NCBI GenBank assembly: GCA_035702925.1
Contig: DASSZC010000436.1
Span: 1-37,275, forward strand
Length of the DNA: 37,275 nucleotides
From: Gemmatimonadaceae bacterium
Lineage (GTDB): Bacteria; Gemmatimonadota; Gemmatimonadetes; Gemmatimonadales; Gemmatimonadaceae
Direction: 5' to 3'
Shown: piece after piece, positions 1 to 37,275 of the stretch
How the letters are laid out: each line of letters opens with the position of its first letter
Position numbering within the stretch: position 1 is the stretch's first letter
Notes under the pieces: model-generated
Seen by the model: the letters and a program-made list of their open reading frames with translations, nothing else
Databases searched by the model: none
What the model was told of the DNA's origin: nothing
Position numbers and translations under genes: made by a program

Positions 1-1693
1 AGCCCGCGTACTTGATCTCCAGCTCCGCCGTCACCGCGGCGTCGATGGGAATCAGCTCGTCGATTCCCGCCGCGCGCAGCAGGTCGAGGAGCGTCACCCC
101 CTGCCGCCGCGCGACATCGACGATCTTCACGGCGTGCGCGAGCGGCGCACTTCGCGCTGCTTCGAGCAAAGACGCCGCCTGTTCCGGGCGGATCGACGTG
201 CTCTCGGCCAGCGCGCGGGCGCGATCCTCGGCCTCCAGCCGGGCGCCGACGAGCCGCTGCTCTCCTTCGCTGAGCGCCCCTCGCTCGATCGCGACAGGTG
301 CGAGCCGGCGCAGTGCGTTGTCCTGCCGCACCGTCAGGCGGAATTCCGAGCGCGAGGTGAAGAGGCGGTATGGTTCGTCCACGCCGCGCGTCACGAGGTC
401 GTCGACGAGCACGCCGATGTATGACGAGGCGCGGCCGAGTATGAGCGGCGGCTGCTCGAGCACGCGCAACGCGGCGTTGTAGCCCGCGACGACGCCCTGC
501 CCTGCTGCCTCCTCGTAGCCCGTGGTCCCGTTGATCTGGCCGGCGAGATAGAGACCGCCGAGCGCGCGAAGCTGGAGCGTCGCGTCGAGCTGCGTCGGTG
601 GATAGTAGTCGTACTCGATCGCGTAGCCGGCGCGAGTCATTCGCGCCGACTCGAGTCCCGGAACAGCGTGCAGCATCTGCAGCTGCACGTCGACCGGGAG
701 CGAGGTCGAAAGCCCGTTCACGTACAGCTCGCGCGTGTCGTGGCCTTCCGGCTCGAGGAAGATCTGGTGTCGCTCCGCATCCGGGAAGCGAAGGATCTTG
801 TCCTCGACCGACGGGCAGTAGCGCGGACCGCGCGAGCCGATCGCGCCCCCGTACATCGCCGAGCGGCCGATGTTGTCCCGGACCACCGCCTTCGCCTCTT
901 CCCCGGCGAAGGTGATCCAGCATGGGAGCTGCGCCGGATGCCGCGTCGTCTCGGCGACGCGACGCGGCGTCGCCCAGAAGTGCGACCACGAGTAATCGAA
1001 CGCGTCGATCTCGCTCTCCTGGCGGTCGAGCTTCGAGTAGTCGACGGAGCGTCCGTCGATGCGCGGCGGCGTTCCCGTCTTGAAGCGCGCGACCTCGAGC
1101 CCGATCGACTCGAGCTGCTCGGCGAGATGGATGGCCGATGGCTCGCCCGCGCCGCCGCCGGCGATCTTCGTCTCGGTGCCGATGTGGATGCGTCCGCGAA
1201 GGAAGGTGCCGGTCGTCAGCACCACGGCCCGCGCGGCGAAGCGCCGCCCCTCGAGGGTCTCGATACCGCGGACAGATCCCGCGCCCTCGTCGATGAGCAG
1301 CCGTGCGACCGTCCCCTGGATCGTGTCGAGCCCCGGCTGCTCCTCGAGGAGCGAGCGAACGGCGCGGCGATAGAGCCCGCGATCGCATTGCGCGCGCGGT
1401 GCCCAGACGGCCGGACCCTTCCCGCGGTTGAGCATGCGGAACTGCAGCGTCGCCAGGTCTGTTGCGCGAGCCATGATGCCGCCCAGTGCATCCACCTCGC
1501 GCACGACGGTTCCCTTCGCGACCCCACCGATCGCCGGATTGCACGACATCTGGCCGATCGTCTCGAGCGCGCTCGTGACGATGGCGACGCGCGCGCCTAA
1601 CCGTGCGGCGGCGACCGCCGCCTCGGTGCCGGCATGGCCGGCACCGATCACGATGACGTCATACGCCGCTTCGGCCGCGTCGAGACGGGTCAT
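1..1693 (-). CDS. mnmG: tRNA uridine 5-carboxymethylaminomethyl modification enzyme MnmG/GidA (C-terminus cut by window edge)
   Basis: Minus-strand translation from ATG (complement of 1691-1693) reads [72 protein letters not shown]... It has the FAD GxGxxG fold and the MSCNPAIGG motif. The frame stays open to position 1, which is why it is absent from the ORF track. Confidence 0.9.
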
Positions 1694-1855
1694 CGGATTC
1701 CGGTGAGGTGAGGAAAGCGAGCGCAGCGCATGGGTCGAAAGCTATACACCGAAGGCACGCAGAGGTACACAGCGAAGTCCGCGAAGCATGAAACGCGGTG
1801 GCGACGGCGGAATCGAGTGGTTATGCTGCGCGATCCCGAGCGAGGAGAGAGGACG

Positions 1856-2140
1856 ATGCCGCTGCAAGCGCCCGCAGGTGCCCCGACGATGATCATCCGC
1901 CGCCCCGCGTTCGAAGCATCCGGGCTGACGCGCGCGATGATCGATGCGCGGCTCAACCTCACTGCCGACGAGTTCCGGGTCGAGGGAGAGCTCGTGGCGA
2001 TCGGCCCGATCCACGAGGAGCCGTCGCTGGTCGCGCTGATCGAGGAGCTGGAGGGGCTGGGGCTGCGCTACTTCGACGACTTCTTCGAGCTGAGCGGCAA
2101 CTGGCCCGAGTGGCTAAAATTATTCGCAATGGGAGAATAA
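1856..2140 (+). CDS. small hypothetical protein (94 aa)
   Basis: Trimmed from track ORF 1730..2140. The ATG at 1856 follows a GAGGAGAGAGG Shine-Dalgarno-like run. GC3 is high except in the last about 8 codons. No recognisable motif. Confidence 0.5.
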   Translation: MPLQAPAGAPTMIIRRPAFEASGLTRAMIDARLNLTADEFRVEGELVAIGPIHEEPSLVALIEELEGLGLRYFDDFFELSGNWPEWLKLFAMGE

Positions 2141-4428: not shown

Positions 4429-6366
4429 ATGAGCCTCATCGCGCTCTCCGGGGTCGGCGTCGAGTTCGGCGCGACGACGCTGTTCAAGGACATCACCTTC
4501 ACGATCGCCCGTGGCGACCGTTGGGGGATCGTCGGCCGGAACGGCATCGGGAAGACGACGCTCTTCAAGCTGATCACCGGGGCCCAGCAGCCGACCAGCG
4601 GCCAGGTCGCGCGCTCCGGAGCGGCGCGCATCTCCCTTCTCGAGCAGCACCGCACCTTCGAGGGGGCGGCGACGGTGTGGGCGGCCGCCGCCGGCCCCTT
4701 CGCCGAGCTGCTCGCGCTCGAGCAGTCGCTCGCCCACCAGGCCGAAGCGTTAGGCAGCAACCCCTCCGACCAGGCGATGGCGAAGTACTCGCGCGACCTC
4801 GAGCGCTTCCAGCACGAGGGAGGCTACGAGGTCGCGGCGAAGGTGGACTCGGTTCTTCATGGCCTCGGCTTCGATCCGGAGAAGGCGCGCAGCCAACCGC
4901 TATCGCAGCTGAGCGGGGGCGAGCGTGGCCGGCTCGGGCTCGCCCAGCAGCTCGCCGCACCGGCGGACATCCTCCTCCTCGACGAGCCGACGAACCACCT
5001 CGATCTCGAGACCACGGCGTGGCTCGAGGAATACCTGCGCGGGCTGGAGGCGACGGTCGTCGTCGTCAGCCACGACCGCGCATTCCTCGACGCGATCGCC
5101 GACCACATCCTCCACTTCGAGAACGGCACGGCGTATCCCTACACCGGCAGCTACGAGGACTTCGTCACCCAGCGGACGGAGCGGCGTCTCGCCGACCAGC
5201 GCGCGTACGACAAGCAGCGCAAGGTGATCGCGGCCGAGGAGGATTACATCCGCCGCAACATCGCCGGCCAGAACACGAAGCAGGCGAAGGGGCGGCGGAA
5301 GCGCCTGGCGCGCATGCCGCGCCTGGGCGGCGTCGCGGGTGAGGGGGGCGTGATGTCGCTCGCCCTGCGCGCCGCCGAGCGCGGGGGCGACCAGGTGGTC
5401 GTCGCCGAGCATGTCGACGTCGCGGTCGAGGGGCGCACCCTGCTCCGCGACTTCTCGGCGCGCGTGGTGCGCGGCGACGTGATCGGGTTGATCGGGCCTA
5501 ACGGTGCCGGGAAGACGACGCTGCTGCGGACGATCGTCGGCGAGCGGCCACCGCAGAAGGGCGAAGTGCGCGTCGGCGGGTCGATCAACCTGGCCTACTA
5601 CGACCAGCAGCTCGGCAACGTCCCGATGGGGAGGACGCTCTACGACGTCATCGCCGACCTGCGTCCGACCTGGGGACGCGGCCCGATCCAGGGGCACCTC
5701 GGCCGGTTCGGCTTCTCCGGCGACAGCGTGCTGCGGACGACGAACGTCCTCTCCGGCGGCGAGCGGGCGCGGCTCGCGCTGGCGATCATGATGCTCACCG
5801 GTGCGAACCTCCTCGTCCTCGACGAGCCGACGAACCACCTCGACGTCGAGTCGATCGAGGTCCTCGAGGAAGCGGTCGAGGGCTACGACGGCACGGTCAT
5901 CCTCGTCAGTCACGACCGCGCCCTGCTCCGCGCGCTGGTCAAGCGGGTGTGGGTGCTGCACCACGAGCACATCACCGATTTCCCCGGGACCTTCGAAGAG
6001 TGGGAGACGGCGAGCGCGGAGCGCGCGCACGCCGCATCGGTGACCGCGGCGGAGGAAGCGGAGCTGCGCCGCGTGCACGAGCGCCAGAAGACGGCTCGGA
6101 AGAGCGAGACGCGCGACAAGGACAGCAAGGGCGCACGCGACGCAAAGCGCGCGGTCGAGGCCGCGGAGGCCGAGGTCTCGAAGCACGAAGCACGCGTCGG
6201 CGAGCTCACGCGTAAGCTCGAGGACCCGGAGCTCTACACGACCACCGAGGGAACGAAGAAGGCCAAGTCGTTAGGCGGCGAGCTCGATGCAGCGAAACGG
6301 GCGCTCGACAAGGCGATCGCCGCCTGGGAGAAGGCGGTAGAGACCGCGGAGCGGGCGACGGCCTAG
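4429..6366 (+). CDS. ABC-F family ATPase (two ABC domains plus a C-terminal coiled-coil)
   Basis: Track ORF. Walker A motifs GRNGIGKTT and GPNGAGKTT, two LSGGE signatures, no TM domain, and a Lys/Glu/Ala-rich C-terminal tail. GGAG lies upstream of the ATG. Confidence 0.9.
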   Translation: MSLIALSGVGVEFGATTLFKDITFTIARGDRWGIVGRNGIGKTTLFKLITGAQQPTSGQVARSGAARISLLEQHRTFEGAATVWAAAAGPFAELLALEQSLAHQAEALGSNPSDQAMAKYSRDLERFQHEGGYEVAAKVDSVLHGLGFDPEKARSQPLSQLSGGERGRLGLAQQLAAPADILLLDEPTNHLDLETTAWLEEYLRGLEATVVVVSHDRAFLDAIADHILHFENGTAYPYTGSYEDFVTQRTERRLADQRAYDKQRKVIAAEEDYIRRNIAGQNTKQAKGRRKRLARMPRLGGVAGEGGVMSLALRAAERGGDQVVVAEHVDVAVEGRTLLRDFSARVVRGDVIGLIGPNGAGKTTLLRTIVGERPPQKGEVRVGGSINLAYYDQQLGNVPMGRTLYDVIADLRPTWGRGPIQGHLGRFGFSGDSVLRTTNVLSGGERARLALAIMMLTGANLLVLDEPTNHLDVESIEVLEEAVEGYDGTVILVSHDRALLRALVKRVWVLHHEHITDFPGTFEEWETASAERAHAASVTAAEEAELRRVHERQKTARKSETRDKDSKGARDAKRAVEAAEAEVSKHEARVGELTRKLEDPELYTTTEGTKKAKSLGGELDAAKRALDKAIAAWEKAVETAERATA

Positions 6367-7331: not shown

Positions 7332-8792
7332 ATGATCCCTGCTAGAAAGTCCCAAGCGATTCGTCACGCGACCGCGCTGGCCGCCTCCCTCGCACTCGCC
7401 ATTTCCGCGGCGCCGGGTCGCGTGCGCGCGCAGGCCCACTTGGCGACGACCGCCGCGACCGCGGCGACCGCGCAGCGAGCCACGCTCGAGAAGGTGATCA
7501 AGCGGCAGGTGCTCCCGAACGGGATGGAAGTCATCGTCGCCGAGAACCACGGGGTGCCGCTGGCGACGATCGAGATCGACGTCCGGAACGGCGCCTTCAC
7601 GCAGGCGCCGGGCTTCGAAGGCCTCGCCCACATGTACGAGCACATGTTCTTCAAGGCGAACGCCGACCTTCCCGAGCCGGAAGCGTTCGTCGATCGCGCC
7701 GGGGAGCTCGGCGCGGTGTTCAACGGGACGACGACCGAAGAGCGCGTGAACTATTACGTCACCCTGCCGAGCGACAGCCTGCGCGGGGGGATCCAGTTCA
7801 TCGCCGCCGCACTGCGCCGCCCCCTGTTCCGCTCGGACGAGCTGGAGCGGGAGCGCCAGGTCGTGCTCGGCGAGTATGATCGTGCCGAGTCGAATCCCTT
7901 CTCCGCCCTGATGAATGAGACGGGGAAGATTCTCTGGGGCAGCGCCTGGTCGCGGAAGGATGCACTTGGCGAGCGGCCGGCGATCCTCGCGACGACACCG
8001 ACGAAGCTTCGTGAGATCCAGCACAAGTACTACGTCCCGAACAACAGCGCCCTCATCGTGACGGGCGACGTCAATCCGGACAGCGTCTTCCGGGCGGCAC
8101 GCGACGCGTTCGGCGACTGGCCGCGCGGTGCGGACCCCTTCGTCGCCGACCCGATTCCCCCGGTGCCGCCGCTCACGGCGAGCAAGGGAAAGGTGATCGA
8201 GGCACCGATCGGGACGATCATCGTGCTGATGCAGTGGCAGGGACCGAGCGTCGGAAAGGATCCGCAGGCGACGTACGCGGCAGACGTGTTTTCCGACGTG
8301 CTGAACCAGCCGAACTCCGGGTTCCAGAAGCGGCTCGTCGACAGCGGCCTGTTCCAGGCGGTCGGCGTCAACTACTACACGCTGAACCAGGTCGGACCGA
8401 TCAGCATCAGCGGGACGACGACTCCCGACAAGCTGAAGGCCGCGCTCGGGGCGCTCGACAAGGAGATCGCGCGCTTCGACGATCCCGGCTACTTCACCGC
8501 CGCCGAGCTGGCGCCGGTCAAGCGGCAGCGGATCGTCGGAACGGCGATGGGGCTCGAGCGGGCATCGGGGTTCGCGCACACCATCGGCTTCTGGTGGAGC
8601 GTGGCGAGCCTCGAGTACTACCTCGGTTACGGCGACAACATGGCGGAGCAGACGACGAAGGACCTGAACGATTACGCGGCGCGATACATCGTGGACAAGC
8701 CACGAGTGGTCGGCGTCATGATCGATCCAGACTCGCGGCGCCGGATCGGGCTGACCGACAGCGACCTCCTCGCGGCGGGGGGCGGACGATGA
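7332..8792 (+). CDS. M16 (pitrilysin) family zinc peptidase, secreted, catalytic subunit
   Basis: In-frame ATG inside track ORF 6435..8792. Signal peptide MIPARKSQAIRHATALAASLALAISAAPGRVRAQA. HxxEH zinc motif present (HMYEH). Confidence 0.85.
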   Translation: MIPARKSQAIRHATALAASLALAISAAPGRVRAQAHLATTAATAATAQRATLEKVIKRQVLPNGMEVIVAENHGVPLATIEIDVRNGAFTQAPGFEGLAHMYEHMFFKANADLPEPEAFVDRAGELGAVFNGTTTEERVNYYVTLPSDSLRGGIQFIAAALRRPLFRSDELERERQVVLGEYDRAESNPFSALMNETGKILWGSAWSRKDALGERPAILATTPTKLREIQHKYYVPNNSALIVTGDVNPDSVFRAARDAFGDWPRGADPFVADPIPPVPPLTASKGKVIEAPIGTIIVLMQWQGPSVGKDPQATYAADVFSDVLNQPNSGFQKRLVDSGLFQAVGVNYYTLNQVGPISISGTTTPDKLKAALGALDKEIARFDDPGYFTAAELAPVKRQRIVGTAMGLERASGFAHTIGFWWSVASLEYYLGYGDNMAEQTTKDLNDYAARYIVDKPRVVGVMIDPDSRRRIGLTDSDLLAAGGGR

Positions 8793-10177
8793 GCGTGTTC
8801 GCGAAAGTCCTCGCGCGCCGGTTGCTGCTGCGTGGGGCCGCCGCGGCGGTACTCTGCGTGAGCGCTGTCGCCGGCGCGCGCCCGGCGCGCGCCCAGGGCA
8901 CGGCGCCGGCTACGCCTGACGGCGCGAGCGCGAAGGCGTCGGGGCCGACGACCACGGACTTCATGGTCGATGGGGTACACGTCGTCCTCCGCCAGACGAC
9001 GGCGAACGACGTCGTCGCGGCGAACCTCTACCTCCTCGGCGGGACGAGACAGCTCACTCCCGAGACGCAGGGAATCGAGGCGATGCTCCTCATCGCGTCG
9101 GAGCGTGGAACGAAGCGCTTCTCGAAGGACGCGCTCCGCGCGCTGACGGCGCGGCTCGGCAGCGACATCGTCATCGACCCGGCGGTGGACTGGTCGATGA
9201 TCGGGGCGCGCTCGCTGCGCGACAGCTTCGACTCGACGTGGATGGTGCTCGCCGACCGGGTGACCGCGCCGCGCCTCGACTCGGCCGAGGTCGAGCGCGT
9301 CCGCGAGCAGATCCTCAGCGACGTCAGCACGCGCCGCGATTCGCCGGACGCGCTCGTCGCGGCGCTCGCCGACAGCGCGACGTGGCAGGGTCACCCCTAT
9401 GCCCTGCAGCCGTTAGGCACGATGGAGAGCATCACGCGCATCACGCTCGCCGACCTGAAGAAGTACGAACGCGAGCAGATGGTCACCTCGCGCATGCTCC
9501 TGGTGGTGGTCGGCAACGTCGATCGCGCGAAGATCGAGCAGCTGGTGCACGCGACGATCGGCAAGCAGCCGCGCGGCAGCTATCGCTGGACCCCGCCGCC
9601 GACGCTGCCGACCGGAATGCCATCGCTCACCATCGCCCCGCGCTCGCTGCCGACGAACTACCTGCTCGGCTATTACGCGGGCCCACCGGCGTCGAGCTCC
9701 GACTATCCGGCGCTGCGAGTCGCGACCGCGGTGCTCTCGGGACGCCTGTTCTCCGAGATTCGCAGCCGGCGGAACCTCACCTACGCGGTGGACGCGCCGT
9801 TCGTCGAGCGGGCAGCGTCGGCCGGGGGGCTCTACGTCACGACCACGGTGCCGGACACGACGCTCGCCCTCATGCGCGCCGAGGTGAAGCGCCTGCAGGA
9901 AGACGAGATCGATCCGTCGGGGCTGGAGCGGCTCGTCCAGCAGTTCATCACGGAATACTTCCTCAACAACGAGACCAACGCGGCGCAGGCGGATTTCATC
10001 GCCCGCGCGGTGCTCTATCGCGGGAGCGCGCTGGCGGCGGACCGGTTCGTCGACGAGCTCCGTGCCGTCCGCCCCGAGGACGTGAAGCGCATCGCGCGCA
10101 CCTACATGCGCGGAGTGCGCTTCGCCTACGTCGGCGATCCGGCGCAGGCGCCGCGGCGGGCCGAAGCGGGGTTCTGA
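8789..10177 (+). CDS. M16 family peptidase-like protein without the HxxEH motif (probable non-catalytic partner)
   Basis: In-frame ATG inside track ORF 8234..10177, forming an ATGA overlap with the upstream stop. Signal peptide MSVFAKVLARRLLLRGAAAAVLCVSAVAGARPARAQ. M16-like fold without HxxEH. Confidence 0.85.
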   Translation: MSVFAKVLARRLLLRGAAAAVLCVSAVAGARPARAQGTAPATPDGASAKASGPTTTDFMVDGVHVVLRQTTANDVVAANLYLLGGTRQLTPETQGIEAMLLIASERGTKRFSKDALRALTARLGSDIVIDPAVDWSMIGARSLRDSFDSTWMVLADRVTAPRLDSAEVERVREQILSDVSTRRDSPDALVAALADSATWQGHPYALQPLGTMESITRITLADLKKYEREQMVTSRMLLVVVGNVDRAKIEQLVHATIGKQPRGSYRWTPPPTLPTGMPSLTIAPRSLPTNYLLGYYAGPPASSSDYPALRVATAVLSGRLFSEIRSRRNLTYAVDAPFVERAASAGGLYVTTTVPDTTLALMRAEVKRLQEDEIDPSGLERLVQQFITEYFLNNETNAAQADFIARAVLYRGSALAADRFVDELRAVRPEDVKRIARTYMRGVRFAYVGDPAQAPRRAEAGF

Positions 10178-10192: not shown

Positions 10193-10804
10193 TCAGGCGG
10201 CGCCGCCGGCTCGCGCCTGCAGCTCGGCACGCACCGCGTCGAGGGAGAGACCGAGCGCACGGAGCGCGACGAGGGTGTGGTAGATGATGTCCGCCGCCTC
10301 CGCCGTGGCGCGCGGCGCATCGCCGTCGGCGCAGGCGACCGCGAGCTCGGCGGCTTCCTCGCCGAGCTTCTTCAGTCTCAGGTTGCGATCGGCGAGCAGC
10401 TTGCGCGTATAGCCCTTGCCCGCCTCCCCCTGTTCGGCGGCGCGCTGGGCGATCGTCCGGTCGAGGGCGCCTAACGCGTCGGCGCCGTGCGCGGTCTCGC
10501 CGAAGCAGGACCGGGCACCGGTGTGGCAGGCGGGGCCAGCCGGCGCAACGCGGGCAAGGATCGCGTCGCTGTCGCAGTCAGCGGAAAGCGAGACCACCCG
10601 CTGGGTGTTGCCGCTGGTCGCTCCCTTGTGCCAGAGGCCCCGCGTGCGCGAGCGGTAATGCATCTCCCCCGTGGCGATGGTGCGCTCGAGTGCCTCACGG
10701 TCGGCGTGGGCAACCATGAGGACGATGCCGCTCGTCGCATCCTGGGTGACGACGGTGACGAGCCCGCCGCCCTTGGCGAAGTCCAGCACGTCGAGATCAA
10801 GCAC
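10193..10804 (-). CDS. hisIE: bifunctional phosphoribosyl-AMP cyclohydrolase / phosphoribosyl-ATP pyrophosphatase
   Basis: Track ORF 10193..10918 trimmed to the GTG at 10804, which overlaps the hisN stop (GTGCTTGA). Contains LDFAKGGGLVTVVTQD and the CHTGARSCF zinc motif. The C-terminal HisE part includes EEAAEL...IIYHTLV. Confidence 0.85.
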   Translation of the reverse strand: MLDLDVLDFAKGGGLVTVVTQDATSGIVLMVAHADREALERTIATGEMHYRSRTRGLWHKGATSGNTQRVVSLSADCDSDAILARVAPAGPACHTGARSCFGETAHGADALGALDRTIAQRAAEQGEAGKGYTRKLLADRNLRLKKLGEEAAELAVACADGDAPRATAEAADIIYHTLVALRALGLSLDAVRAELQARAGGAA

Positions 10805-11597
10805 GGGTGACTCCAGCTCCAAGAATCGTGCGCGCTTCACGGGCGAGCGCGGCGTTGGTGGCGATGGCGCTTCCGCCAAACCCGGTCGCGCGCCCACTCC
10901 AGTCGGTGAACACGCCACCGGATTCGGTGATGATCGGGTACAGTGCGGCGGTGTCCCACGGTCCGACGATCCCGTCGACCATCACCTCGGCGCGTCCGGT
11001 CGCGACGAGCAGGTAGCCGTAGCAGTCTCCCCACGAACGGGCGACCGCGCTCCGCGCGGCGAGCGAACGCCAGCCTTCGAGATGCTGCGGGGTCTGACGG
11101 AAGCGCTCATCGGTAGTCAGGACCGTCGCGTCAGCGAGCGTCGCAACTGATGAGACCTGGCACCGCGCGCCGTTCGACCAGCAGCCGGCACCCGATGCGG
11201 CGGCGATCATCTCGCCGACGGCGGGAAAGTACGCCGCGCCGGCGACGACCTCTTCCCCCATGGCGATGGCGACGAGCGTTCCCCAGAGCGGAACCCCGCG
11301 GACGAAGGTCTTCGTCCCGTCGATCGGGTCGACGATCCACCGATATTTCGAGCCGGCTCCCGTTTCGCCCTGCTCCTCGCCGAGTATTCCGTGATCGGGG
11401 TAGCGGCGACCGATCCACTCGCGCGCGGCCTGCTCCGCCTCACGGTCGGCGATGGTGACGGGGGATCCATCGGTCTTCCACTCGACAGCGACGCCGCGGC
11501 GGAAATGACGAAGCGCGGCATCGCCGGCGATGCGCGCGACCTCGGTGACCGCCTCGAGAAGTTCGTTTTTCGCGGGCGCGGCGGCGGTCGTGGTCAT
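10797..11597 (-). CDS. hisN: inositol-monophosphatase-family histidinol-phosphatase
   Basis: Track ORF. IMPase motifs WIVDPIDGT and WDTAA. Embedded in the his operon, with an ATGA overlap to hisF. Confidence 0.8.
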
Positions 11598-18532: not shown

Positions 18533-18572
18533 GTGACGAAGGCGGAAGCGCATGCGCTTCCGCCTTCGTCAT
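18533..18572 (+). terminator. long GC-rich hairpin after the cupredoxin gene
   Basis: GACGAAGGCGGAAGCGC-AT-GCGCTTCCGCCTTCGTC, with 17-bp perfect arms, about 20 nt after the stop codon. The tail ATATTCGTC is only weakly U-rich. Confidence 0.55.
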
Positions 18573-22046: not shown

Positions 22047-22253
22047 ATGACCACGAAATCGACCGAAGTCCGCACGAGCCGCGGCCACGTGACCGCGAAC
22101 AACAACGCGCAGGGGTGGGGCGTCGCCGCCTTCATCGTCGCCCTCGCGTTAGGCCTCACCTTCGCCGCGTACTACATCCACGAGCGGACCTTCCGCTCGC
22201 CTAACGATCCGGCGGCGCCGGTCACCACCAGCGAGCACGAGCCGCACGCCTAG
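22047..22253 (+). CDS. small single-pass membrane protein (68 aa), hypothetical
   Basis: Track ORF. High GC3, with TM helix [21 protein letters not shown]. Its TAG stop overlaps the ispG TAG stop on the other strand at CTAG. Confidence 0.5.
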
Positions 22254-25147: not shown

Positions 25148-25252
25148 ATCACGCGCCAGAGCCTATTCGCGGGCACGTTTGCCCGGGCTGGGGTGCGGCC
25201 ATACATTGGCGACGCCTGTGATCTCGCCGAGGTAGGATACGAGGATGCCGCT

Positions 25253-25873
25253 GTGAGCACGTACCATCGCCGCCGAATGGTCGAACTGAAGCACGCCTAC
25301 GACGAGGCGCGATTCGGCCCCGAGCGGACCCTCAACCTTCGCGCGATGCTGCCGACCGCCGCCGAGGCAACGCGGCGGGCGACGGCGTGGCTCCGCGAGC
25401 GCCAAGCGAGCGGGGCAGGTGAGGTGCTCATCATCACCGGGCGGGGGAACAGCAGCGACGCCGGTTTCTCGGTGGTTCGCGAGGCGATCGCGAAGACCCT
25501 TCGCCAGCTCAAGCGCCAAGGGGTGGTCGATACCGTCGCCGAACATTCCCCGGGTTCCTTCGTCGCGACGCTGGCGCCGATGCGGCGGCTCTGGGAAGGG
25601 GCGCGGCGCACCGCCGCCGCCCGCAGCGACATCCCCGGCGGCGCGACGCTCGGCGGGCTCGATCCGGAGACGGCCAGCCTGCTCCGGGTCCTCGCCGAGC
25701 GCTCGCTCGACGCGTTAGGCGTGAGCCACAGCGAGTCGTTCGTCCAGCGGGAGATGGCGACCCAGTTCGCGGTGCTCCTCCGCGGCGTGCCGCCGGGGGA
25801 GGATCGCGACGGCCGCCTGCGCGAGGTGATCAGGCGCGCGCTCGCCGACGACGAGGACCACCGCACACGTTAG
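25253..25873 (+). CDS. Smr (small MutS-related) domain protein
   Basis: Track ORF 25193..25873. I prefer the in-frame GTG at 25253, which follows a GAGGA. The Smr pattern reads LNLRAMLPTAAEA...VLIITGRGNSS...VVREAIAKTLRQLKRQGVV. Confidence 0.7.
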   Translation: MSTYHRRRMVELKHAYDEARFGPERTLNLRAMLPTAAEATRRATAWLRERQASGAGEVLIITGRGNSSDAGFSVVREAIAKTLRQLKRQGVVDTVAEHSPGSFVATLAPMRRLWEGARRTAAARSDIPGGATLGGLDPETASLLRVLAERSLDALGVSHSESFVQREMATQFAVLLRGVPPGEDRDGRLREVIRRALADDEDHRTR

Positions 25874-25903
25874 GCGGTCGTCCCGCGGCGGAGGGTCGCG
25901 CCA

Positions 25904-27754
25904 TTACCGCGGCGGAGGGCGGTTCCCCGCGTCGTTCGCTCGCTGGATGCTGTCGAGGCGCAGCCGGGCCCGCTGGATGCTGTCGAGGCGCGCGCGCCGG
26001 CGCTCGATCTCCTGGCGAATCGTTTCCCGTTCGGCGGCGAGCGACTCGACGCGGGCGACGGTATCACGACGGGCGCGGGCGGAGGCGCTGTCGGCGATGA
26101 CCACCGGGGGATTCATCGGTGCCTCGGGCAGCGGCTGCCGGGGTTCGACGCTGGGCGTTACGGGGAGCGCCGCCGGCCGCTGGCCGACGGTCGAGGGCCG
26201 AGGCTGTGTGCGCGCCGCGGCGCGGCGTGAAGCGCCGGGCACGGGCGCGATGCCGCCAGCGGACACCGATTCGCGCACCCCTGCCGAGCGAGAGCCGGTC
26301 CCCGTGAGCGAGTCCACGCCGCGGCCAGGCTCGCTCGCCGCCGCGGCCGACGGGCGGCGGTGGGCGACCGTGTAGCCGATCACGACGCCGAGCAGCAGCC
26401 CGGTCGCGGCGATCGCACCGGCGGCGAGGAGCCGCGAGCGCTTCCGGAGGAGGGTCACCCCCCGCCCCATGCGCGCCCCGATCATGGCGCCGGCGGCGGC
26501 AACGCTCACCGCCCTGCCTAACGGTGACGGTTCGACGCTCCGGGCCATCGGGCGCTCGCTGTCCGCTGGCACCGGCGGCGGCGCTTCGGTGACGACGGGG
26601 ACTCCCGCGCGTGGCGACCGCCGATGCGCGACGTAGGCGCGGGGAAGGATGCGTCCCTCGCTGTCGCTCGCGACGGGGACCCCTCCCGGAACGACGCGTG
26701 GAATGCCGGTCGGCGAGCGACGCCGTGGCGGCGCCGACGGAGGAGGAGCCGGTGCCGGCGGGGTCGCGGCGATCGCCGGAGCACCGGGCGGGGTCAGCCT
26801 CGGCCGGCGAGGAGCGGCAACCGGGGGTGGGGGTGGTGCGCTGCCTAACGATGCGCCCGGGCCGCTGATCACGCGCGGGTCACCGCCGCCCTGGGGAGCG
26901 GCCGGCTCGGCGACGAGGTCGGCGGCGCCGCGCGCGGCCATCGGGAGCGGCATGTCGAGCGACAGCGCGCCACGGTCATCGACGACCGGATACGCCGAGC
27001 GTGGCGGCTCGAGCGCGACGACGCTCATGCGCGCCTCGTTCGGCTCCGCGCCGCGGATCGCTCCGGAGCAGACGCAGCCAACCGCCGGCGCGGGATCGAT
27101 GAGAGCGTCCTTGCGGGCGAGCACGAGGTCGGCGAGCTCCGAGGCGAAGTCGCCCCCCTTCATCGTCTCGACGATGAAATGCTCGCGCGACCAGAGCATC
27201 TCGGCGAATGGCAGGCCGCCGGGCGCGGAGAGGTGCCGCCGGCGGTCAGGGGGGATGACCGACTCGAACACCTCGGGTTGCGCCGCGAGATCGATCCCGC
27301 GGTCGGCGAGCTGCGCGAGGAGCTCCTCAGGGGTCAGCCGCGCATCGATCGAATCGTCGGCTGCCGCCGGGCAGCGACCGGCGTAGGTGATCCGAAGCTC
27401 ACCCGCCGCATTGAGGCGGATGTAGCGAGCGGCGGCGACGGGGGGCGCGACGAGGGAGATGAGGTGCGGTGCCAGCTCGGAGCCGACCCCGAGAACGCGG
27501 CGCGCAACGTGCGGACAGGCGCAGTGAATGGCGGGCCGGGTCGCACGGCCACTGAGGGCGTCGAGCGTCGCACCCGCAACGAGCTCGTCTCCCCAGCTGG
27601 CAGGAATCACAGCGCGGAAGCCGGCGGCGAGGCAGGCATGCGCGAGCTGCACAGGGGCAGCGGGTCGCGCGGCCAGCATCGCGTCGTTGCCGAGAATCAC
27701 CACGGCCGGCGCGCTCGAGGCGCGGAAGTCTGCGAGTGGTGGCAACGGCGACAC
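25904..27754 (-). CDS. membrane-anchored protein with an N-terminal [FeFe]-hydrogenase-large-subunit-like (Fe_hyd_lg_C-like) domain, a Pro-rich linker, a TM helix and a C-terminal coiled-coil
   Basis: Track ORF. The N-terminal roughly 250 aa parallel the hydrogenase-like fold: IHCACPHVARRV...LISLVAPPVAAARYIR...ITYAGRCPAAADD..DARLTPEEL...APGGL...GCVCSGAIRG. A PPPPP/APAPPP linker follows, then TM LLAAGAIAATGLLLGVVIGYTV and the repeat RLDSIQRA. Confidence 0.6.
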   Translation of the reverse strand: MSPLPPLADFRASSAPAVVILGNDAMLAARPAAPVQLAHACLAAGFRAVIPASWGDELVAGATLDALSGRATRPAIHCACPHVARRVLGVGSELAPHLISLVAPPVAAARYIRLNAAGELRITYAGRCPAAADDSIDARLTPEELLAQLADRGIDLAAQPEVFESVIPPDRRRHLSAPGGLPFAEMLWSREHFIVETMKGGDFASELADLVLARKDALIDPAPAVGCVCSGAIRGAEPNEARMSVVALEPPRSAYPVVDDRGALSLDMPLPMAARGAADLVAEPAAPQGGGDPRVISGPGASLGSAPPPPPVAAPRRPRLTPPGAPAIAATPPAPAPPPSAPPRRRSPTGIPRVVPGGVPVASDSEGRILPRAYVAHRRSPRAGVPVVTEAPPPVPADSERPMARSVEPSPLGRAVSVAAAGAMIGARMGRGVTLLRKRSRLLAAGAIAATGLLLGVVIGYTVAHRRPSAAAASEPGRGVDSLTGTGSRSAGVRESVSAGGIAPVPGASRRAAARTQPRPSTVGQRPAALPVTPSVEPRQPLPEAPMNPPVVIADSASARARRDTVARVESLAAERETIRQEIERRRARLDSIQRARLRLDSIQRANDAGNRPPPR

Positions 27755-29042: not shown

Positions 29043-29930
29043 TTGCCCGTCGCGCTCGGCGCAGTCCTCTGGCAGGGCCGCCGGTCAGCGCGAGCGCTGG
29101 CGAGCGAGGTCGCTGCCCGCCTGCAGGTCGGGGGCGACGGGATCATCGAGGGCGCGGGACCGATCGCGCGCGAGGCGCCCGGGGGACGGGCAGTGCTCCT
29201 CCTGCACGGCTTCGGCGATACCCCGCAGACGCTGCACTACGTCGCCGACGCCCTGCAGGCCGCGGGGTACACCGTGCGCGCCCCGCTCCTCCCCGGGCAC
29301 GGGCGCACGCTGGCGGAGTTCGGCGCGACGCGCGCCAAGCAGTGGATCGCCGCCGCCCGCGACGCGTACGCGGAGCTGTCGGGCACCTTCGGTCCGTCGC
29401 CGGTGGTCGGGCTGTCGATGGGCGGAGCGTTAGGCATCGTGCTCGCGGCCGAGACCCCGACCATCCCCGCGCTGGCGCTGGTCGCGCCGTACGTCAGCGT
29501 CCCGCGGCGCGCGCGGTTCGTCGCCCGCTTCCATCCGCTGTGGGAGCTGGTCACGCCGTACTTCCGCTCCGGCGGCGAGCGCTCGATCCTCGACCCGGTC
29601 GAACGTGAGCGGGCACTCGGGTACGGTGTCCTGACGCCGCGGCTGCTCTTCGAGCTGTCGCGGGTGGTGCGGCGCGTCCAGGTGTCGCTCCCGCGTGTCC
29701 GCGTGCCGACGCTGGTGATCCACGGGCGGAACGACGAGCGGATCCCTCCCGACGCCGCGGCGCGGGAATACGCGCGCCTCGGCGCGCCGGAGAAGGAGCT
29801 GGTCTGGATGGCGCAGGGCGGGCACGTGCTGACCGTCGACTACGGGCGCGAGCGAGTCATCGAGCTCATTCTCGACTGGCTGGCGCGGCACCCCGCGGGG
29901 CGCGGCGGCGGGGTACCGGCGCAGCGCTAG
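29043..29930 (+). CDS. alpha/beta-fold hydrolase (carboxylesterase/lysophospholipase-like)
   Basis: Track ORF (TTG start, uncertain). Contains VLLLHGFGDTP, the nucleophile elbow GLSMGG, and HGRNDERIP...GGH. Confidence 0.8.
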   Translation: MPVALGAVLWQGRRSARALASEVAARLQVGGDGIIEGAGPIAREAPGGRAVLLLHGFGDTPQTLHYVADALQAAGYTVRAPLLPGHGRTLAEFGATRAKQWIAAARDAYAELSGTFGPSPVVGLSMGGALGIVLAAETPTIPALALVAPYVSVPRRARFVARFHPLWELVTPYFRSGGERSILDPVERERALGYGVLTPRLLFELSRVVRRVQVSLPRVRVPTLVIHGRNDERIPPDAAAREYARLGAPEKELVWMAQGGHVLTVDYGRERVIELILDWLARHPAGRGGGVPAQR

Positions 29931-31667: not shown

Positions 31668-31685
31668 CGGGCACCCGCCGCGCCG

Positions 31686-32699
31686 TTAGGCGCCGGCGGC
31701 GGGCCGCGGCGGCATCCGCCGCGTCCGCTCGTCACCCAGTACCCAGCAGCGGTCCGCGGGAAGATGCCGAGCCGCCCAGGCGTCGAGCGCGCGTCTGGGC
31801 GGCTCGTCCATCGGTTCGTCGGTGAGGCGGAAAGTCCCCCAGTGCGTCGCGAGCAGCACGGGGGCGGGCGCTCCCGCGCCGGCGCCGAGATCCACGGCGG
31901 CGGACACCGCTTCCTCGGCGTTCATGTGCACGGGCCGCATGAACCAGCGCGGCTCATACGCGCCGATCGGAAGGAGCGCGAGATCGAAGGGCCCTAGCCG
32001 GCGGCCGATCTCGACGAACTCGGGATGGTAGCCCGTGTCGCCGCCGAAGAGAACGCGCCATCCATGCGCTGCGATCGCGAAGCCCGCCCACAAGGTGCTG
32101 TCGCGATTGGCGAGCGAGCGGCCGCTGAAATGCTGCGCGGGGACGGCGGTGATGATGGTGTCGGCGGCCCTCGTCGACTGCCACCAGTCGAGCTCGGCCA
32201 CCTGCGCAACGCCGAAACTGGTGAGCAGTCCGCCGACGCCGAGGGGGGCGACCCAGCGTGCCGCCGGGTGCGCGATGGCGAGGGCACGGATCGTTGGCGC
32301 GTCGAGGTGGTCGTAGTGGTCGTGGGAGAGGACGACGACGTCGATCGGCGGCAGCGAGGCGAGGGATATCGCCGGAGGAACGAGCCGGCGCGGCCCGGCC
32401 CACGAGACCGGCGACGCGCGCTCGCTCCAGATCGGGTCGGTGAGCACGTTCATCGCGCCGACCTGCAGGAGGACCGTCGAATGGCCGATCCACGTGGCGC
32501 GCAGCGAGCCGTCGTCCTGCCGTGGGTGCACGATGGCCGAGCGACCGACCGCGAGCGGCGAGCGGTCGGCGACACGCTCGCCGCGCAGCCGCCTAACGGC
32601 GCGGCCGGCGGCCCAGCGGAGAACGGCGGAAAATCCCTGCGGTCGGGCGCCGGGCCATGGATTGCGGTAGCCGCCGCCGGGTGCGTGGTGCTCGGTCAT
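31686..32699 (-). CDS. MBL-fold metallo-hydrolase (NAPE-PLD-like)
   Basis: C-terminal 337 aa of track ORF 31686..34163, starting MTEHHAPGGGYRNPWPG. Metal motif VVLSHDHYDHLD. The N-terminal roughly 490 aa of the track ORF are antisense to the NHL gene. Confidence 0.85.
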   Translation of the reverse strand: MTEHHAPGGGYRNPWPGARPQGFSAVLRWAAGRAVRRLRGERVADRSPLAVGRSAIVHPRQDDGSLRATWIGHSTVLLQVGAMNVLTDPIWSERASPVSWAGPRRLVPPAISLASLPPIDVVVLSHDHYDHLDAPTIRALAIAHPAARWVAPLGVGGLLTSFGVAQVAELDWWQSTRAADTIITAVPAQHFSGRSLANRDSTLWAGFAIAAHGWRVLFGGDTGYHPEFVEIGRRLGPFDLALLPIGAYEPRWFMRPVHMNAEEAVSAAVDLGAGAGAPAPVLLATHWGTFRLTDEPMDEPPRRALDAWAARHLPADRCWVLGDERTRRMPPRPAAGA

Positions 32700-34238: not shown

Positions 34239-34268
34239 CGCGTCAGGCGCGTGGCTCCGCGTACGCGC

Positions 34269-35453
34269 CTAACGCGCGATGGTCTCGGCGATCGCCAGGT
34301 TCTCGGCGACGTGCTTCGCCCCGCGCATGCCGACAAGCGCGGTGGTGATCCCGGGAACGCCGCGGACGAAGGCGAGCGCGCGCTGGGCGTCGGTGTCGTA
34401 GCGCGGGAGCGCGTCGCGAACGGCGGCCGGGAGCGAACGGGCGAGCGCCGACTGCATGAGCGACGCGCTGGCGACGACGACGAGCCCGAGCTCCGACGCG
34501 GCCTCGAGCGCGGTACGCTCGCGCGTGCCGACCCGCTGGGTCGGCGTCCGCAGCGCTTCGCTCATCGCGAGGTTCACCGGGAGCTGCACATACTGGAAGT
34601 GATGCGCATCGCCCGCCACTTCGCGCGCGGCGCCGACCAGCTCCTCGAGGGAGAGGCTCTCCCGCGATTCGGGATCGACGCGGAGCCCGTTCCAGGTCGC
34701 GCAGCCGTAGGCGGCGATGTCGCCGGCCTCGACGCGTGACTCGAGGGCCTCGAAGGCGCGGACGACCCGGCGCCGGAACAGCTCGCGCCCGATCGTCGCG
34801 ACCTGCTGCTCGGGGTTGTGCAGATAATAGACGTCTATGGTTTCGAGCCCGAGGTTGGCGCGGCTGCGGGCAACCTGGTCGGCGAGATAGCCCGGAGCCA
34901 TGCAGTGCCCGCCACCGACGACGTCCTCGGGGCGCATCACGCCGCGGGCGAAGTACTCGCGCTCGATGAGCTGGTTGTATTCGTCGCGCGACGCGGGAGG
35001 GCTCCCGTCGAGGGGGATGTACCCTCCCTTGCTGCAGACGATCACCTCGTCGCGACGCGCGACCCCGTCGTCGAAGAGCGCGGTGAGCGCGCGGCCGACG
35101 ACGCGCTCCGAGCGCTGGCAGCGATAGTTGATCGCCGTGTCGATGACGTTGAGGCCAGCGGTGACCGCCGCGCGCAACGCTTCCTCGTAGCGACGGTCGT
35201 CGGCGTCGTCCGGCTCGCCGAGGTAGGTGCCGATGCCGATCGACGAGACGAGGAGGGCGCCGGCGGCGGGGCGGTAGAAGTCGGGAATGCGCTCGGGCGC
35301 GAAGCGCGCGGCGATGCGCTCGGTCCCGGTCACGGTGGCGCGCGCTCCACCGCCGGCATGCGCGACCGCGCTTGCGCCGGAGCTGGCGACCGCCGTCGCG
35401 GCCGACTCACCCCGCCCTCCCTCGTGACCCGCTGAACGTCCGGTATTCATCAT
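34269..35453 (-). CDS. aldo/keto reductase family oxidoreductase
   Basis: Track ORF. Contains IGIGTYLG, NVIDTAINYR and YYLHNPE. The Gly/Ala-rich N-terminal roughly 45 aa suggest the true start is further downstream. Confidence 0.85.
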   Translation of the reverse strand: MMNTGRSAGHEGGRGESAATAVASSGASAVAHAGGGARATVTGTERIAARFAPERIPDFYRPAAGALLVSSIGIGTYLGEPDDADDRRYEEALRAAVTAGLNVIDTAINYRCQRSERVVGRALTALFDDGVARRDEVIVCSKGGYIPLDGSPPASRDEYNQLIEREYFARGVMRPEDVVGGGHCMAPGYLADQVARSRANLGLETIDVYYLHNPEQQVATIGRELFRRRVVRAFEALESRVEAGDIAAYGCATWNGLRVDPESRESLSLEELVGAAREVAGDAHHFQYVQLPVNLAMSEALRTPTQRVGTRERTALEAASELGLVVVASASLMQSALARSLPAAVRDALPRYDTDAQRALAFVRGVPGITTALVGMRGAKHVAENLAIAETIAR

Positions 35454-35623
35454 GCGATGGGGACGCTATGGGGAGTGTGCTGTCGAAGCAAGGGCGTGCG
35501 AGCGTTGCGCTGCCCTTCCATCACCGGCGGCCGGTCCCCAACGTTCATGAAACCGGCGTCGTTCGCGGCGGTCCTCCCGTCGCGGTGGCGCTCTCGTCGT
35601 CCCCATTCCGGCCAGGTGCACTC

Positions 35624-37275
35624 GTGAGACAGGCTTTCACCGCGTTGTTGCTCCTCGGAGCGGCGGCCTGCAGCCGCAACAAGCCGCAAGTCGTCACTCC
35701 CGTTCCCATCGACAGTGCACGCGTCGTCGTCGAGTCGATGGGCCGCTCGGCGAAGACGTTCGTGACCACCGCCGACGATCCATTCGTGCGGATCGACCGG
35801 ATGGAATGGCCAGGACCGAACCGCTTCCGGTCCGCCGACGGACAGCCGGGGCCGGAGTACTGGCAACAGCGTGCCGACTACATCATCAGCGCGACGCTCG
35901 ACACCGCGGGGCGCTCGGTGACCGGCAGCGTGACGATCAAGTACACGAACAACTCTCCCGACACCCTTCGCTTCGTCTGGCTGCAGGTCGACCAGAATCT
36001 CTACCGTCCGGGGAGCAAGGGCTCGGTCATCAATCCAGCCGACAGCCGGTGGGGCGCGCGCAACTTCCAGGGTGGCTACGACATCAGCGCACTCACGGTC
36101 GACGGCAAGGCGCAGGCGCCGAAGGTCGACGACACGATGATGCGCATCGACCTCGAAAAGCCGATCGCCCCGAAGGGTGGGACGGCGACGATCGCGATGA
36201 GCTTCCGCTTCCTCGTTCCCGATCATGGGTCCGACCGGATGGGACGCGACGGGACGCTGTACGAGATCGCGCAGTGGTACCCGAGGATGGCGGTCTATGA
36301 CGACGTTCGCGGGTGGAACACCGATCCGTACCTCGGGCAAGGGGAGTTCTACCTCGAGTACGGCGATTACGACTACTCGGTAACGGTTCCCGCCGGCTAC
36401 ACCGTCGCCGGGAGCGGGCTGCTGCAGAACGCGAGCGAGGTGCTGACGGCGAGCGAGCGGCAGCGGCTCGCGCAGGCGGCGACGTCGACGAACGTCGTCC
36501 AGATCATCACGGCGGCCGAGTCGGCGCCGAAGAAGACGGCGGGGACGAAGACGTGGAAGTTCCACGCCGACAACGTGCACGACGTCGCGTGGGCCGCCGC
36601 CCCCGACATGCGGTGGGACGCGGTGAGCACGGGCCCGATCGCGAACAACGAGAAGGGAGTGCTGGCGCAGGCCTACTACGTGTGGCCGCGGGCGGGGGCC
36701 GGGTGGGAGAATGGCGCGGAGAACACCCAGTGGACGATCCGCACGTACTCGTCGCTGTTCTATCCGTTCCCGTATCCGCAGGCGTCGTCCGTCGCCGGCC
36801 CGGTGGGGGGAATGGAGTATCCGATGTTCGTGATGGTGCACTACGCGCAGAACGCGCAAGGCGCCTTCGGGACGATCGATCACGAGCATGGCCACGAGTG
36901 GTTCCCGATGATCGTCAGCAGCAACGAACGGCGCTACGCGTGGATGGACGAGGGGTTCAACACCTACATCAACGCCTTCTCGAACGAGCTGCGCACGCCG
37001 GCGAAGCCGGTCTGGCCGGTCTACATGGCGAACTGGCGGGACATCCAGGGGAAGGGAATCTCCGCGCCGCTGATGACGCCGCCCGACCGGATCGACCCGG
37101 CAGCGTTAGGCGCGATCGGCTATCGCAAGCCGGCGGCGGTGCTGCTGACGCTGCGCGACCATGTCGTCGGCCGCGAGACCTTCGACCGCGCCTTCCGCGA
37201 GTACGCGCGGCGCTGGGCGTACAAGCACCCGACTCCCGCCGACTTCTTCCGCACCGTCGAGAACGTGAGTGGCAC
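35624..37275 (+). CDS. M1-family zinc metallopeptidase lipoprotein (C-terminus cut by window edge)
   Basis: The frame is open from the GTG at 35624 to the window end, so it is absent from the track. Signal/lipobox VRQAFTALLLLGAAAC. Zinc motif HEHGHEWFP with WMDEGFNTY 18 residues later (HExxH-X18-E). Confidence 0.85.
   Translation, partial: MRQAFTALLLLGAAACSRNKPQVVTPVPIDSARVVVESMGRSAKTFVTTADDPFVRIDRMEWPGPNRFRSADGQPGPEYWQQRADYIISATLDTAGRSVTGSVTIKYTNNSPDTLRFVWLQVDQNLYRPGSKGSVINPADSRWGARNFQGGYDISALTVDGKAQAPKVDDTMMRIDLEKPIAPKGGTATIAMSFRFLVPDHGSDRMGRDGTLYEIAQWYPRMAVYDDVRGWNTDPYLGQGEFYLEYGDYDYSVTVPAGYTVAGSGLLQNASEVLTASERQRLAQAATSTNVVQIITAAESAPKKTAGTKTWKFHADNVHDVAWAAAPDMRWDAVSTGPIANNEKGVLAQAYYVWPRAGAGWENGAENTQWTIRTYSSLFYPFPYPQASSVAGPVGGMEYPMFVMVHYAQNAQGAFGTIDHEHGHEWFPMIVSSNERRYAWMDEGFNTYINAFSNELRTPAKPVWPVYMANWRDIQGKGISAPLMTPPDRIDPAALGAIGYRKPAAVLLTLRDHVVGRETFDRAFREYARRWAYKHPTPADFFRTVENVSG

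Follow-up and report, generated by a model that had tools for sequence, protein, structure and literature searches.

The octamer CGTTAGGC, together with its complement GCCTAACG, is a lineage-specific, exact and strand-symmetric word of duplex DNA, which occurs at about 40-50 times its chance frequency in the chromosomes of one clade of uncultured soil Gemmatimonadaceae, as first seen in a stretch of 37,275 nucleotides from a bacterium of this family (contig DASSZC010000436.1; the whole stretch is called the window below), and we have very little doubt that it is kept by a force acting on the DNA itself. With confidence that falls just short of even, we further propose that CGTTAGGC is a kin-recognition tag for gene exchange in these bacteria, which would be recognized in an all-or-none manner, shared with phages and also read inside the cell (either in a polarity-free, Chi-like way or in packaging), and which would be the first signal of the uptake type outside Proteobacteria and Cyanobacteria.

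All 21 copies listed in the original prediction were confirmed at the positions given, the plus strand bearing 11 of them and the minus strand 10; this corresponds to 0.56 per kb in DNA with a G+C content of 69.5%. Dinucleotide-preserving shuffles (n=100) gave an expectation of 0.43 copies with a maximum of 3, and Markov models of orders 1-3 gave 0.36-0.55. In the codon-aware null every protein and the window's own codon usage were kept and synonymous codons were resampled; 0.40 ± 0.67 copies were expected (maximum 4 in 500), compared with 18 observed in the curated coding sequences. This is the strictest of the three nulls, because its codon usage includes a TTA frequency that has already been inflated by the word. 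An order-5 Markov expectation does match the observed count, but since almost all of the relevant 6-mers derive from the word itself this model is overfitted and uninformative, and it was not used. The possibility that the frequency simply follows a higher-order Markov expectation was therefore not borne out, the higher-order and codon-aware nulls giving about 0.4-0.55 copies. In an unbiased scan of all 8-mers in the window CGTTAGGC ranked first (z = 34), the runners-up being nothing but shifted forms of the word itself. Neither flank of the copies (20 bases each) holds information; the unit therefore measures 8 bp exactly and does not belong to a longer repeat. The characteristics of dispersed repeats, such as repetitive extragenic palindromes (REP) or miniature inverted-repeat transposable elements (MITE), were not found, given that the flanks are not conserved and no copy among the 21 is purely intergenic; all of them lie inside genes or overlap stop codons. 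The spacing between copies fits random placement (coefficient of variation 0.76 versus 0.96, P = 0.13).

A soil metagenome-assembled genome (MAG) of the Gemmatimonadaceae encodes an ABC-F protein with 97% identity to that of the window, and nine species-representative MAGs of this family (L001-L009), with ABC-F proteins at least 87% identical to that of the window, served as relatives. Their DNA is 77-94% identical to one another; in each of them the word has a density of 0.33-0.78 per kb and ranks at or near the head of all 8-mers. In contrast, five more distant Gemmatimonadota (L010-L014; ABC-F identity 54-64%; at most 22 kb each) hold zero copies, and the 26 outgroup loci (L015-L040) essentially none. 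Enrichment limited to the window would have pointed to a local effect; the presence of the word in nine species-level genomes and in independent metagenome contigs means that the enrichment is clade-wide and is neither a peculiarity of the window nor an assembly artefact. The density differs between sub-lineages, being about 0.33-0.40 per kb in L001, L008 and L009 and 0.6-0.8 per kb in L002-L006, and in L009 four of six window sites have been lost or were never present, which suggests that the strength of the force varies within the clade.

The word can be written in proteins with the codons TTA-GGC and CCT-AAC, less often with GTT-AGG and CTA-ACG, and it can supply the stops CGT-TAG and GCC-TAA. 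The reading-frame tally given in the original prediction stands: 12 copies are read as xCG-TTA-GGC, five in antisense as CCT-AAC, one as GTT-AGG, and three supply stop codons (CGT-TAG at 25868 and 34267, GCC-TAA at 31684). That the word accounts for nearly all TTA codons is also right in substance, as 12 of the 14 TTA codons in curated window genes lie in it. It could be supposed that a codon, peptide or mRNA-level signal is selected here, for example a TTA-dependent translational pause or an Ala-Leu-Gly peptide motif, and the 12 sense copies of 21 would agree with this. However, Leu in the context NCG-Leu-GGC is encoded with TTA in 10 of 22 cases in the window and in 25 of 52 in the relatives (L003, L004, L006 and L009 for this and the next four comparisons), whereas Leu-GGC without the preceding CG uses TTA in only 1 of 38 and 1 of 97 cases, respectively; the use of TTA-GGC for Leu-Gly regardless of the preceding CG, which would have spoken for a codon habit, is thus not observed. 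The reverse complement saturates an unrelated context: G-Pro-Asn-G is written CCT-AAC in 4 of 5 cases in the window and in 10 of 15 in the relatives. When all opportunities are counted, the word is carried by 10 of 38 [SPTA]-Leu-Gly tripeptides in the window (20-36% per locus in relatives) and by 4 of 7 eligible Pro-Asn sites (from 0/6 to 4/5 per locus in relatives), and these occupancies are reached although the word requires the codons that the genome uses least. A larger set of clade contigs shows it in all four stop-free frames, in both kinds of stop codon and in intergenic DNA. Its density is 0.79 per kb in intergenic DNA (0.15 copies expected in 7.6 kb) and 0.55 per kb in coding DNA, an excess of about 40-fold in both. 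The context dependence of TTA, the filling of Pro-Asn sites and the use of frames, stops and intergenic DNA, besides the 0.4 copies yielded by the codon-aware null, rule out explanations at the level of peptide, codon or mRNA, and this alternative is regarded as refuted. The earlier proposal, according to which the DNA word and not codon choice is the target of selection or of a biased process, therefore holds under the null models, in the relatives and in the Leu-Gly context. The word distorts the usage of stop codons as well as that of Leu and Pro codons, and it explains the odd usage of TTA, CCT, TAG and TAA in genes of this clade. At 70% G+C, TAG or TAA ends 11 of the 28 genes called in the window, three of these stops being supplied by the word.

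The enrichment is confined to the exact word. When the window and its nine relatives are pooled, 99 exact copies are found compared with about 2 expected, whereas the 24 single-mismatch variants together number 119 compared with 118 expected; in the window alone there are 29 one-off matches and about 24 are expected. The near-matches that had been pointed out at 1595, 24610 and 12462 do exist, but they are three of these 29 and do not exceed the chance level. Of the synonymous intermediates, neither CGCTAGGC nor CGTTGGGC is enriched, and a clear depletion is not seen either. Under mutation-selection equilibrium, one-off variants at chance level mean that a single mismatch removes essentially all advantage. 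The predicted recognition is much stricter than that of the DNA uptake sequence (DUS) of Neisseria, and it is stricter than that of the cyanobacterial octamer HIP1. One variant, CGTCAGGC, is mildly over-represented (37 compared with 16.6 expected in the same pooled set; examples in the window are at 332, 8914, 10191 and 15293); the one at 332 is orthologous to exact copies in L003-L006, and the variant could be a decay product or a codon effect.

Conservation was assessed over the 16 kb that can be aligned with the relatives, where the copies of the window are retained in 35 of 42 pairwise comparisons (83%) and their own flanking 8-mers in 68 of 252 (27%); these comparisons share phylogeny and are not independent, although the difference is large. 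Ordinary 8-mers are retained at 20-27% in relatives of about 80% identity, and at 32% and 45% in the two closest ones, L002 and L001. The dips of identity at third codon positions vanish inside the word. Several copies are lineage-specific or patchy among the relatives, and those that lack a copy usually have CGCTCGGC or CGCTGGGC, which encode the same peptide in ordinary codons and are 2-3 nucleotide changes away. Gain by synonymous change is what the original prediction had suggested looking for at orthologous positions. In the ABC-F gene, at 4748 distant relatives carry CGCTGGGC and similar sequences, and at 5496 they retain Pro-Asn using the codons CCG, CCC or CCA. Because distant relatives encode Pro-Asn and x-Leu-Gly with normal codons at the ABC-F sites, the word must have been gained by synonymous recoding. 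At 9411 the word is present in L004, and L003 has the one-off variant CGTTAGGG. The 21 copies are as follows.

4748-4755, plus strand: in the ABC-F ATPase gene (4429-6366, plus), sense GCG-TTA-GGC (Ala-Leu-Gly); kept in 9 of 9 relatives.
5496-5503, minus strand: antisense in the ABC-F gene, which reads G-CCT-AAC-G (Pro-Asn); kept in 8 of 9 relatives.
6269-6276, plus strand: in the ABC-F gene, sense TCG-TTA-GGC (Ser-Leu-Gly); kept in 8 of 9 relatives.
9411-9418, plus strand: in the second M16-like peptidase gene (about 8795-10177, plus), sense CCG-TTA-GGC (Pro-Leu-Gly).
10469-10476, minus strand: in hisIE (10193-10918, minus), sense GCG-TTA-GGC; kept in L003, L004 and L006.
11711-11718, minus strand: in hisF (11594-12355, minus), sense GCG-TTA-GGC; kept in L003, L004 and L006.
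16036-16043, minus strand: in hisD (15313-16614, minus), sense GCG-TTA-GGC; kept in L003, L004 and L006.
16985-16992, plus strand: antisense in hisG (16677-17546, minus), which reads G-CCT-AAC-G (Pro-Asn).
18823-18830, minus strand: antisense in a 605-aa gene without assigned function (18533-20350, plus), which reads Pro-Asn.
22147-22154, plus strand: in a small membrane-protein gene (22047-22253, plus), sense GCG-TTA-GGC inside a transmembrane helix.
22199-22206, minus strand: antisense in the same small gene (22047-22253), Ser-Pro-Asn-Asp; forms an inverted pair with 22147.
22678-22685, plus strand: antisense in ispG (22250-23602, minus), which reads Lys-Pro-Asn-Gly.
25713-25720, plus strand: in the Smr-domain protein gene (25193-25873, plus), sense GCG-TTA-GGC.
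25868-25875, plus strand: supplies the TAG stop (CGT-TAG) of the Smr-domain gene.
26516-26523, minus strand: in a 616-aa Fe-hydrogenase-like gene (25904-27754, minus), sense CCG-TTA-GGC.
26843-26850, minus strand: in the same 616-aa gene (25904-27754, minus), sense TCG-TTA-GGC.
29428-29435, plus strand: in an alpha/beta-hydrolase gene (29043-29930, plus), sense GCG-TTA-GGC.
31684-31691, plus strand: its complement supplies the TAA stop (GCC-TAA) of an MBL-fold hydrolase gene (31686 to about 32900, minus).
32591-32598, minus strand: in the MBL-fold hydrolase gene (minus), sense, read as GTT-AGG (Val-Arg).
34267-34274, minus strand: supplies the TAG stop (CGT-TAG) of an aldo/keto-reductase gene (34269-35453, minus).
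37104-37111, plus strand: in an M1-peptidase gene (35165 to beyond 37273, plus), sense GCG-TTA-GGC.

Independent contigs were collected by scans of metagenome and viral sequences, in which two copies of the word within 31 nt were required and only loci with extra dispersed copies were kept; most matches were due to chance or to tandem repeats, for example (GCGTTAG)n in low-GC contigs, and were discarded. In the clade contigs 29 of 55 extra copies point the same way as the seed pair, a count that becomes 22 of 48 when the integron contig L130 is left out. This coherence cannot be distinguished from 50% and is significantly below what a replichore skew of 75% would produce (P = 0.005), while a weak skew of up to 60% would be compatible with it. 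Together with the 11:10 distribution in the window it means that polarity of the type seen in Chi sites or in the FtsK orienting polar sequences (KOPS) is not present, which supports the earlier statement that the word is not a skewed signal of either kind. The nine same-strand copies in L130 were rejected as a sign of polarity because they belong to integron attC sites, and the contig was excluded. There, an integron cassette array (L130:400-6320) has about nine elements of 60-140 nt, which start with GCCTAACGGATCGCGCTTAAGCTGCGGGCG, end with GCTTCAAGCGCTTGTTAGGC and lie 260-1250 bp apart; they are attC sites with the inverse core RYYYAAC, the core GTTRRRY and full attC architecture. Tight arrays of 2-4 copies with periods of 9-22 bp were also seen in high-GC clade contigs (L077:3004-3038, L062:22-81, L072:1699-1718, L110:1020-1039 and L068:1152-1203), several of them being simple tandem duplications that include flanking bases, and the search had required close pairs. 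Outside the clade, contigs of low G+C (about 44%) have 7-bp arrays of (GCGTTAG)n with GCGTTAA variants (L053:873-901 and 7975-7996; L111:206-248; L147:8751-8793).

Matches in viral contigs were mostly due to chance; four high-GC loci (L194, L161, L187 and L201) have four extra dispersed copies each. These loci were chosen for carrying a motif pair; the nearest cultured phages are less than 40% identical, so no host can be assigned by homology. According to PHROG searches the loci are genuine phage regions; the two genes of L201 that were tested had no PHROG match. In L194 two copies are read as Ala-Leu-Gly-Gly in the tape-measure gene and more are located in tail genes. L161 encodes the large and the small terminase. 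The ATG of the latter's gene (1435-1974, minus; phrog_57) is directly adjoined by two copies, and two overlapping copies in the opposite orientation are located about 170 bp upstream, within the sole non-coding region of notable length (L161:1975-2170), which may be a pac or regulatory region. L187 has terminase and DNA polymerase genes, and a word pair is located upstream of the gene that precedes the large terminase, this gene not being recognizable as a small terminase.

What could keep such a word in place? Its density, strand symmetry, conservation, pattern of gain and implied strength, ln(observed/expected) = ln 45 or about 4, match the class formed by DUS, the uptake signal sequence (USS) and HIP1, all of which are linked to transformation. 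For this reason we favour, by analogy and at distinctly less than even probability, a tag for kin- or self-recognition in uptake and transformation. A highly specific protein of a DNA-exchange pathway would recognize the word in double-stranded DNA, and fragments carrying the word would be preferentially taken up and/or recombined during natural transformation. Alleles with the word would replace alleles without it, by molecular drive plus selection, and over time synonymous opportunities would be loaded with the word and existing copies conserved.

Several observations weigh against an uptake tag. The clade has no cultured member, and among the about 35 genes of the window there is no competence, pilus or methyltransferase gene; type IV pilus and secretin genes, ComEA, ComEC, DprA and a word-specific receptor of the ComP kind are all missing from this set. 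The copies show no preference for terminators or inverted pairs (a single close inverted pair exists in the window, and it is inside a small gene), and one-off variants do not exceed the expected number; two frequent, although not defining, features of the uptake family are thus missing. Within the at most 22 kb available for each, L010-L014 have no comparable word ("dialect") of their own. At the patchy site 7963 the flanks track genome-wide similarity, and no recombination signal is seen at about 80% identity, a divergence at which recombination could also go unnoticed. Above all, the enrichment in phage genes is real, and no other observation agrees so poorly with a model based on uptake alone; the occurrence in phages is more readily explained by a force that acts inside the cell.

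These phage data, together with recognition that is all-or-none, make a polarity-free self-mark inside the cell the main rival. It would be read by a translocating nuclease or helicase, a recombination complex or a defence system, in the way that Chi is read by RecBCD or AddAB to slow degradation and stimulate recombination; marked DNA would be spared or recombined, so that both the chromosome and the phages replicating in these hosts would be selected to carry the word. We consider this unlikely, yet it deserves attention before the remaining alternatives. The word is dispersed in bona fide phage genes (tape-measure and tail genes of L194, and also L161, L187 and L201), two inverted pairs of L161 border the region immediately upstream of the small terminase, where packaging ends are usually made, and recognition is all-or-none for the exact word. 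The density per orientation, about 1 per 3.6 kb, is near that of E. coli Chi. Chi is abundant in some phages (PMC3784561, PMC12315714), and a Chi-like role has been suggested for HIP1. On the other hand, every known Chi is co-oriented with replication, which disagrees with the orientation counts of CGTTAGGC given above, the forty-fold enrichment is far above that typical of Chi, the phage loci had been selected for the motif pair, and no RecBCD, AddAB or defence gene could be linked to the word. Still less probable is a role as the binding site of an abundant chromosome-organising protein, with copies selected for nucleoid structure. Occurrence throughout the genome and on both strands alike, at conserved positions and with the same enrichment in coding as in intergenic DNA, would suit such a protein, the spacing is slightly (not significantly) more even than random, tight local arrays exist in some clade contigs (L077, L062, L072 and L110), and HIP1 was so interpreted by Xu et al. 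from its periodic distribution (PMC5861425). However, nucleoid proteins usually tolerate mismatches and one-off variants have no enrichment here, close pairs were a condition of the search that yielded the arrays, several of which are plain tandem duplications, and no candidate protein was found.

The other alternatives are less probable again. The word could be a neutral by-product of biased repair or of methylation-linked mutation, resembling very-short-patch repair, that converts near-cognate sites into it. Such a process would act equally on coding and intergenic DNA and on all DNA replicating in the cell, including phages, and it has been proposed for HIP1 by Elhai (PMC4390886). Nevertheless, retention of 83% compared with 27% reflects maintenance and not random replenishment (the same argument has been used for HIP1), two GC-to-AT changes would be required to turn CGCTCGGC or CGCTGGGC into the word in a genome of 70% G+C, and the counts of the intermediates CGCTAGGC and CGTTGGGC show no enrichment and no clear depletion. 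Patch repair of T:G to C:G runs in the direction opposite to these changes. A repair-driven origin is now less likely, and we regard it as improbable. A packaging (pac-like) or transduction signal, whereby the terminase of a phage or of a gene transfer agent (GTA) would read the word and word-rich host DNA would be exchanged among kin, is very improbable. The terminase-proximal copies of L161 and the pair in L187 are what it would predict, but only L161 is a clear case, intergenic DNA is simply where unconstrained copies accumulate, the loci were selected for close pairs, and the window has no terminase or GTA gene. Hardly any chance is given to sites related to integrons or tyrosine recombinases. 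The word consists of C followed by GTTAGGC, an exact match to the canonical attC/attI core GTTRRRY, its complement contains the inverse core RYYYAAC, and the cassette array of L130 was caught by the same search pattern. Still, the copies in the window have neither conserved or palindromic flanks nor attC architecture, they sit in essential genes, in which recombination would do harm, and the additional 5' C is invariant although attC does not require one.

The window itself is an ordinary stretch of housekeeping chromosome, with mnmG, an ABC-F ATPase, two M16 peptidases, the histidine operon, ispG, a cold-shock protein, a regulator of the Crp family and hydrolases of several kinds. A signal peptide and a third-position G+C of 0.92 characterize the second M16-like peptidase gene (8795-10177, plus strand); it had no Pfam match in the frames first tried, and a simple caller based on third-position G+C wrongly gives two minus-strand open reading frames there. 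Between an HD-domain gene and the convergent ispG lies an unannotatable gene for a 68-aa membrane protein (22047-22253, MTTKSTEV...), the RNA of which is predicted to fold (dG -34.2, z -2.8) and which holds two inverted copies of the word. This inverted pair (22147/22199) was rejected as a terminator because it is inside a real gene. Among the distant loci, a second dialect was considered for Gemmatimonas sp. L014 and rejected, since its top word comes from a tandem array with a 13-bp unit that ends the contig (L014:7489-7602, GGGGCGCATACGT, at least nine units). The palindromes GCAGCTGC (18 compared with 2.8 expected) and GCTGCAGC (12 compared with 1.9) are about 6-fold over-represented in L013 and L010; this excess is much weaker than that of CGTTAGGC and may be a codon effect.

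To our knowledge, only three hyper-abundant and strand-symmetric genomic words have been described, namely DUS, USS and HIP1. In the literature CGTTAGGC is mentioned only in primers, and no report of uptake sequences in Gemmatimonadota was found. By its behaviour CGTTAGGC belongs with these three words, and membership of the uptake family by function is putative. The resemblance to DUS and USS that had been noted from density and strand symmetry is real in those respects, and it extends to clade specificity and positional conservation; it does not extend to an excess of one-off variants or a concentration in terminators, and the presence in phages also sets CGTTAGGC apart. Like DUS and USS, CGTTAGGC is a short non-palindromic word, hyper-abundant (about 0.3-0.9 per kb for this class) and equally frequent on both strands, restricted to a clade (found in L001-L009, with no copy in L010-L014), retained at orthologous positions and fitted into frames that proteins tolerate, with an implied strength of about 4. 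In Neisseria the density of DUS is 0.87 per kb and 2Nes has been estimated at about 4 (PMC2397512). According to Treangen et al., new DUS arise from sequences several mismatches away (PMC2397512), and new copies of CGTTAGGC face sequences at a similar distance. The differences are equally clear. DUS has 10-12 bases and USS has 9 plus an AT tract, whereas CGTTAGGC has 8 exact bases without flanking preference. Neisseria genomes hold about 800 DUS-1 per 1,900 DUS (~40%; PMC2397512), and no one-mismatch excess is seen for CGTTAGGC, either in the pooled set (119 versus 118) or in the window (29 versus 24). About half of DUS and USS lie in terminators, often as inverted pairs, and 34-42% of DUS are in genes, in contrast to CGTTAGGC, nearly all copies of which are genic and which has no such concentration. 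DUS is absent from recently acquired DNA in Neisseria (PMC2397512), whereas CGTTAGGC occurs in genes of phage loci that were chosen for carrying it, and it does so in a different phylum, in a clade without cultured members.

HIP1 (GCGATCGC) of cyanobacteria is similar in being an octamer that is over-represented tens to hundreds of times, is conserved inside open reading frames as well as between them, and is not explained by effects on peptide, RNA or expression. Its over-representation is 15-300-fold (PMC5861425), a range into which CGTTAGGC falls, and its function, long unknown, is now linked to transformation. However, HIP1 is palindromic and holds the targets of two known orphan methyltransferases, whereas CGTTAGGC is asymmetric and no methyltransferase was found for it; the one-mismatch variants of HIP1 (HIP1*) are conserved, whereas CGTTAGGC is strictly exact; and HIP1 spans almost a whole phylum, whereas CGTTAGGC, with its AT-rich core at 70% G+C, is confined to one clade of Gemmatimonadaceae. 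Chi shares with CGTTAGGC its asymmetry, species specificity, octamer size, exact reading, over-representation in core DNA and occurrence in some phages, and the density per orientation is similar to that of Chi in E. coli; nevertheless, Chi is co-oriented with replication and modestly over-represented, whereas CGTTAGGC has no detectable polarity and an excess of about 45-fold. KOPS and the architecture imparting sequences (AIMS) are likewise abundant octamers that act on chromosomal DNA, but they are defined by a strong strand skew towards the terminus, with a switch at origin and terminus, which CGTTAGGC does not have. With the integron attC core it has in common the sequence GTTAGGC (GCCTAAC in the complement); attC sites, however, consist of R''-L''...L'-R' boxes of about 60-140 nt in arrays, whereas the copies of CGTTAGGC are dispersed singly in housekeeping genes with information-free flanks.

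DUS, USS and HIP1 have each informed us how bacteria restrict genetic exchange to their kin, and a fourth such word, in an abundant and almost uncultured soil phylum, would show that the class is wider than two proteobacterial families and the cyanobacteria. Being exact, non-palindromic, uniformly spread and shared with phages, CGTTAGGC could help to separate explanations based on uptake, recombination and chromosome structure. On the practical side, it marks contigs of the clade and their phages in metagenomes, for binning and for host assignment, and it predicts what should be added to DNA constructs if these bacteria are ever cultured. If the word is indeed a kin tag that is shared with phages, then, in addition to the role at the cell surface, such a tag would also be read inside the cell.

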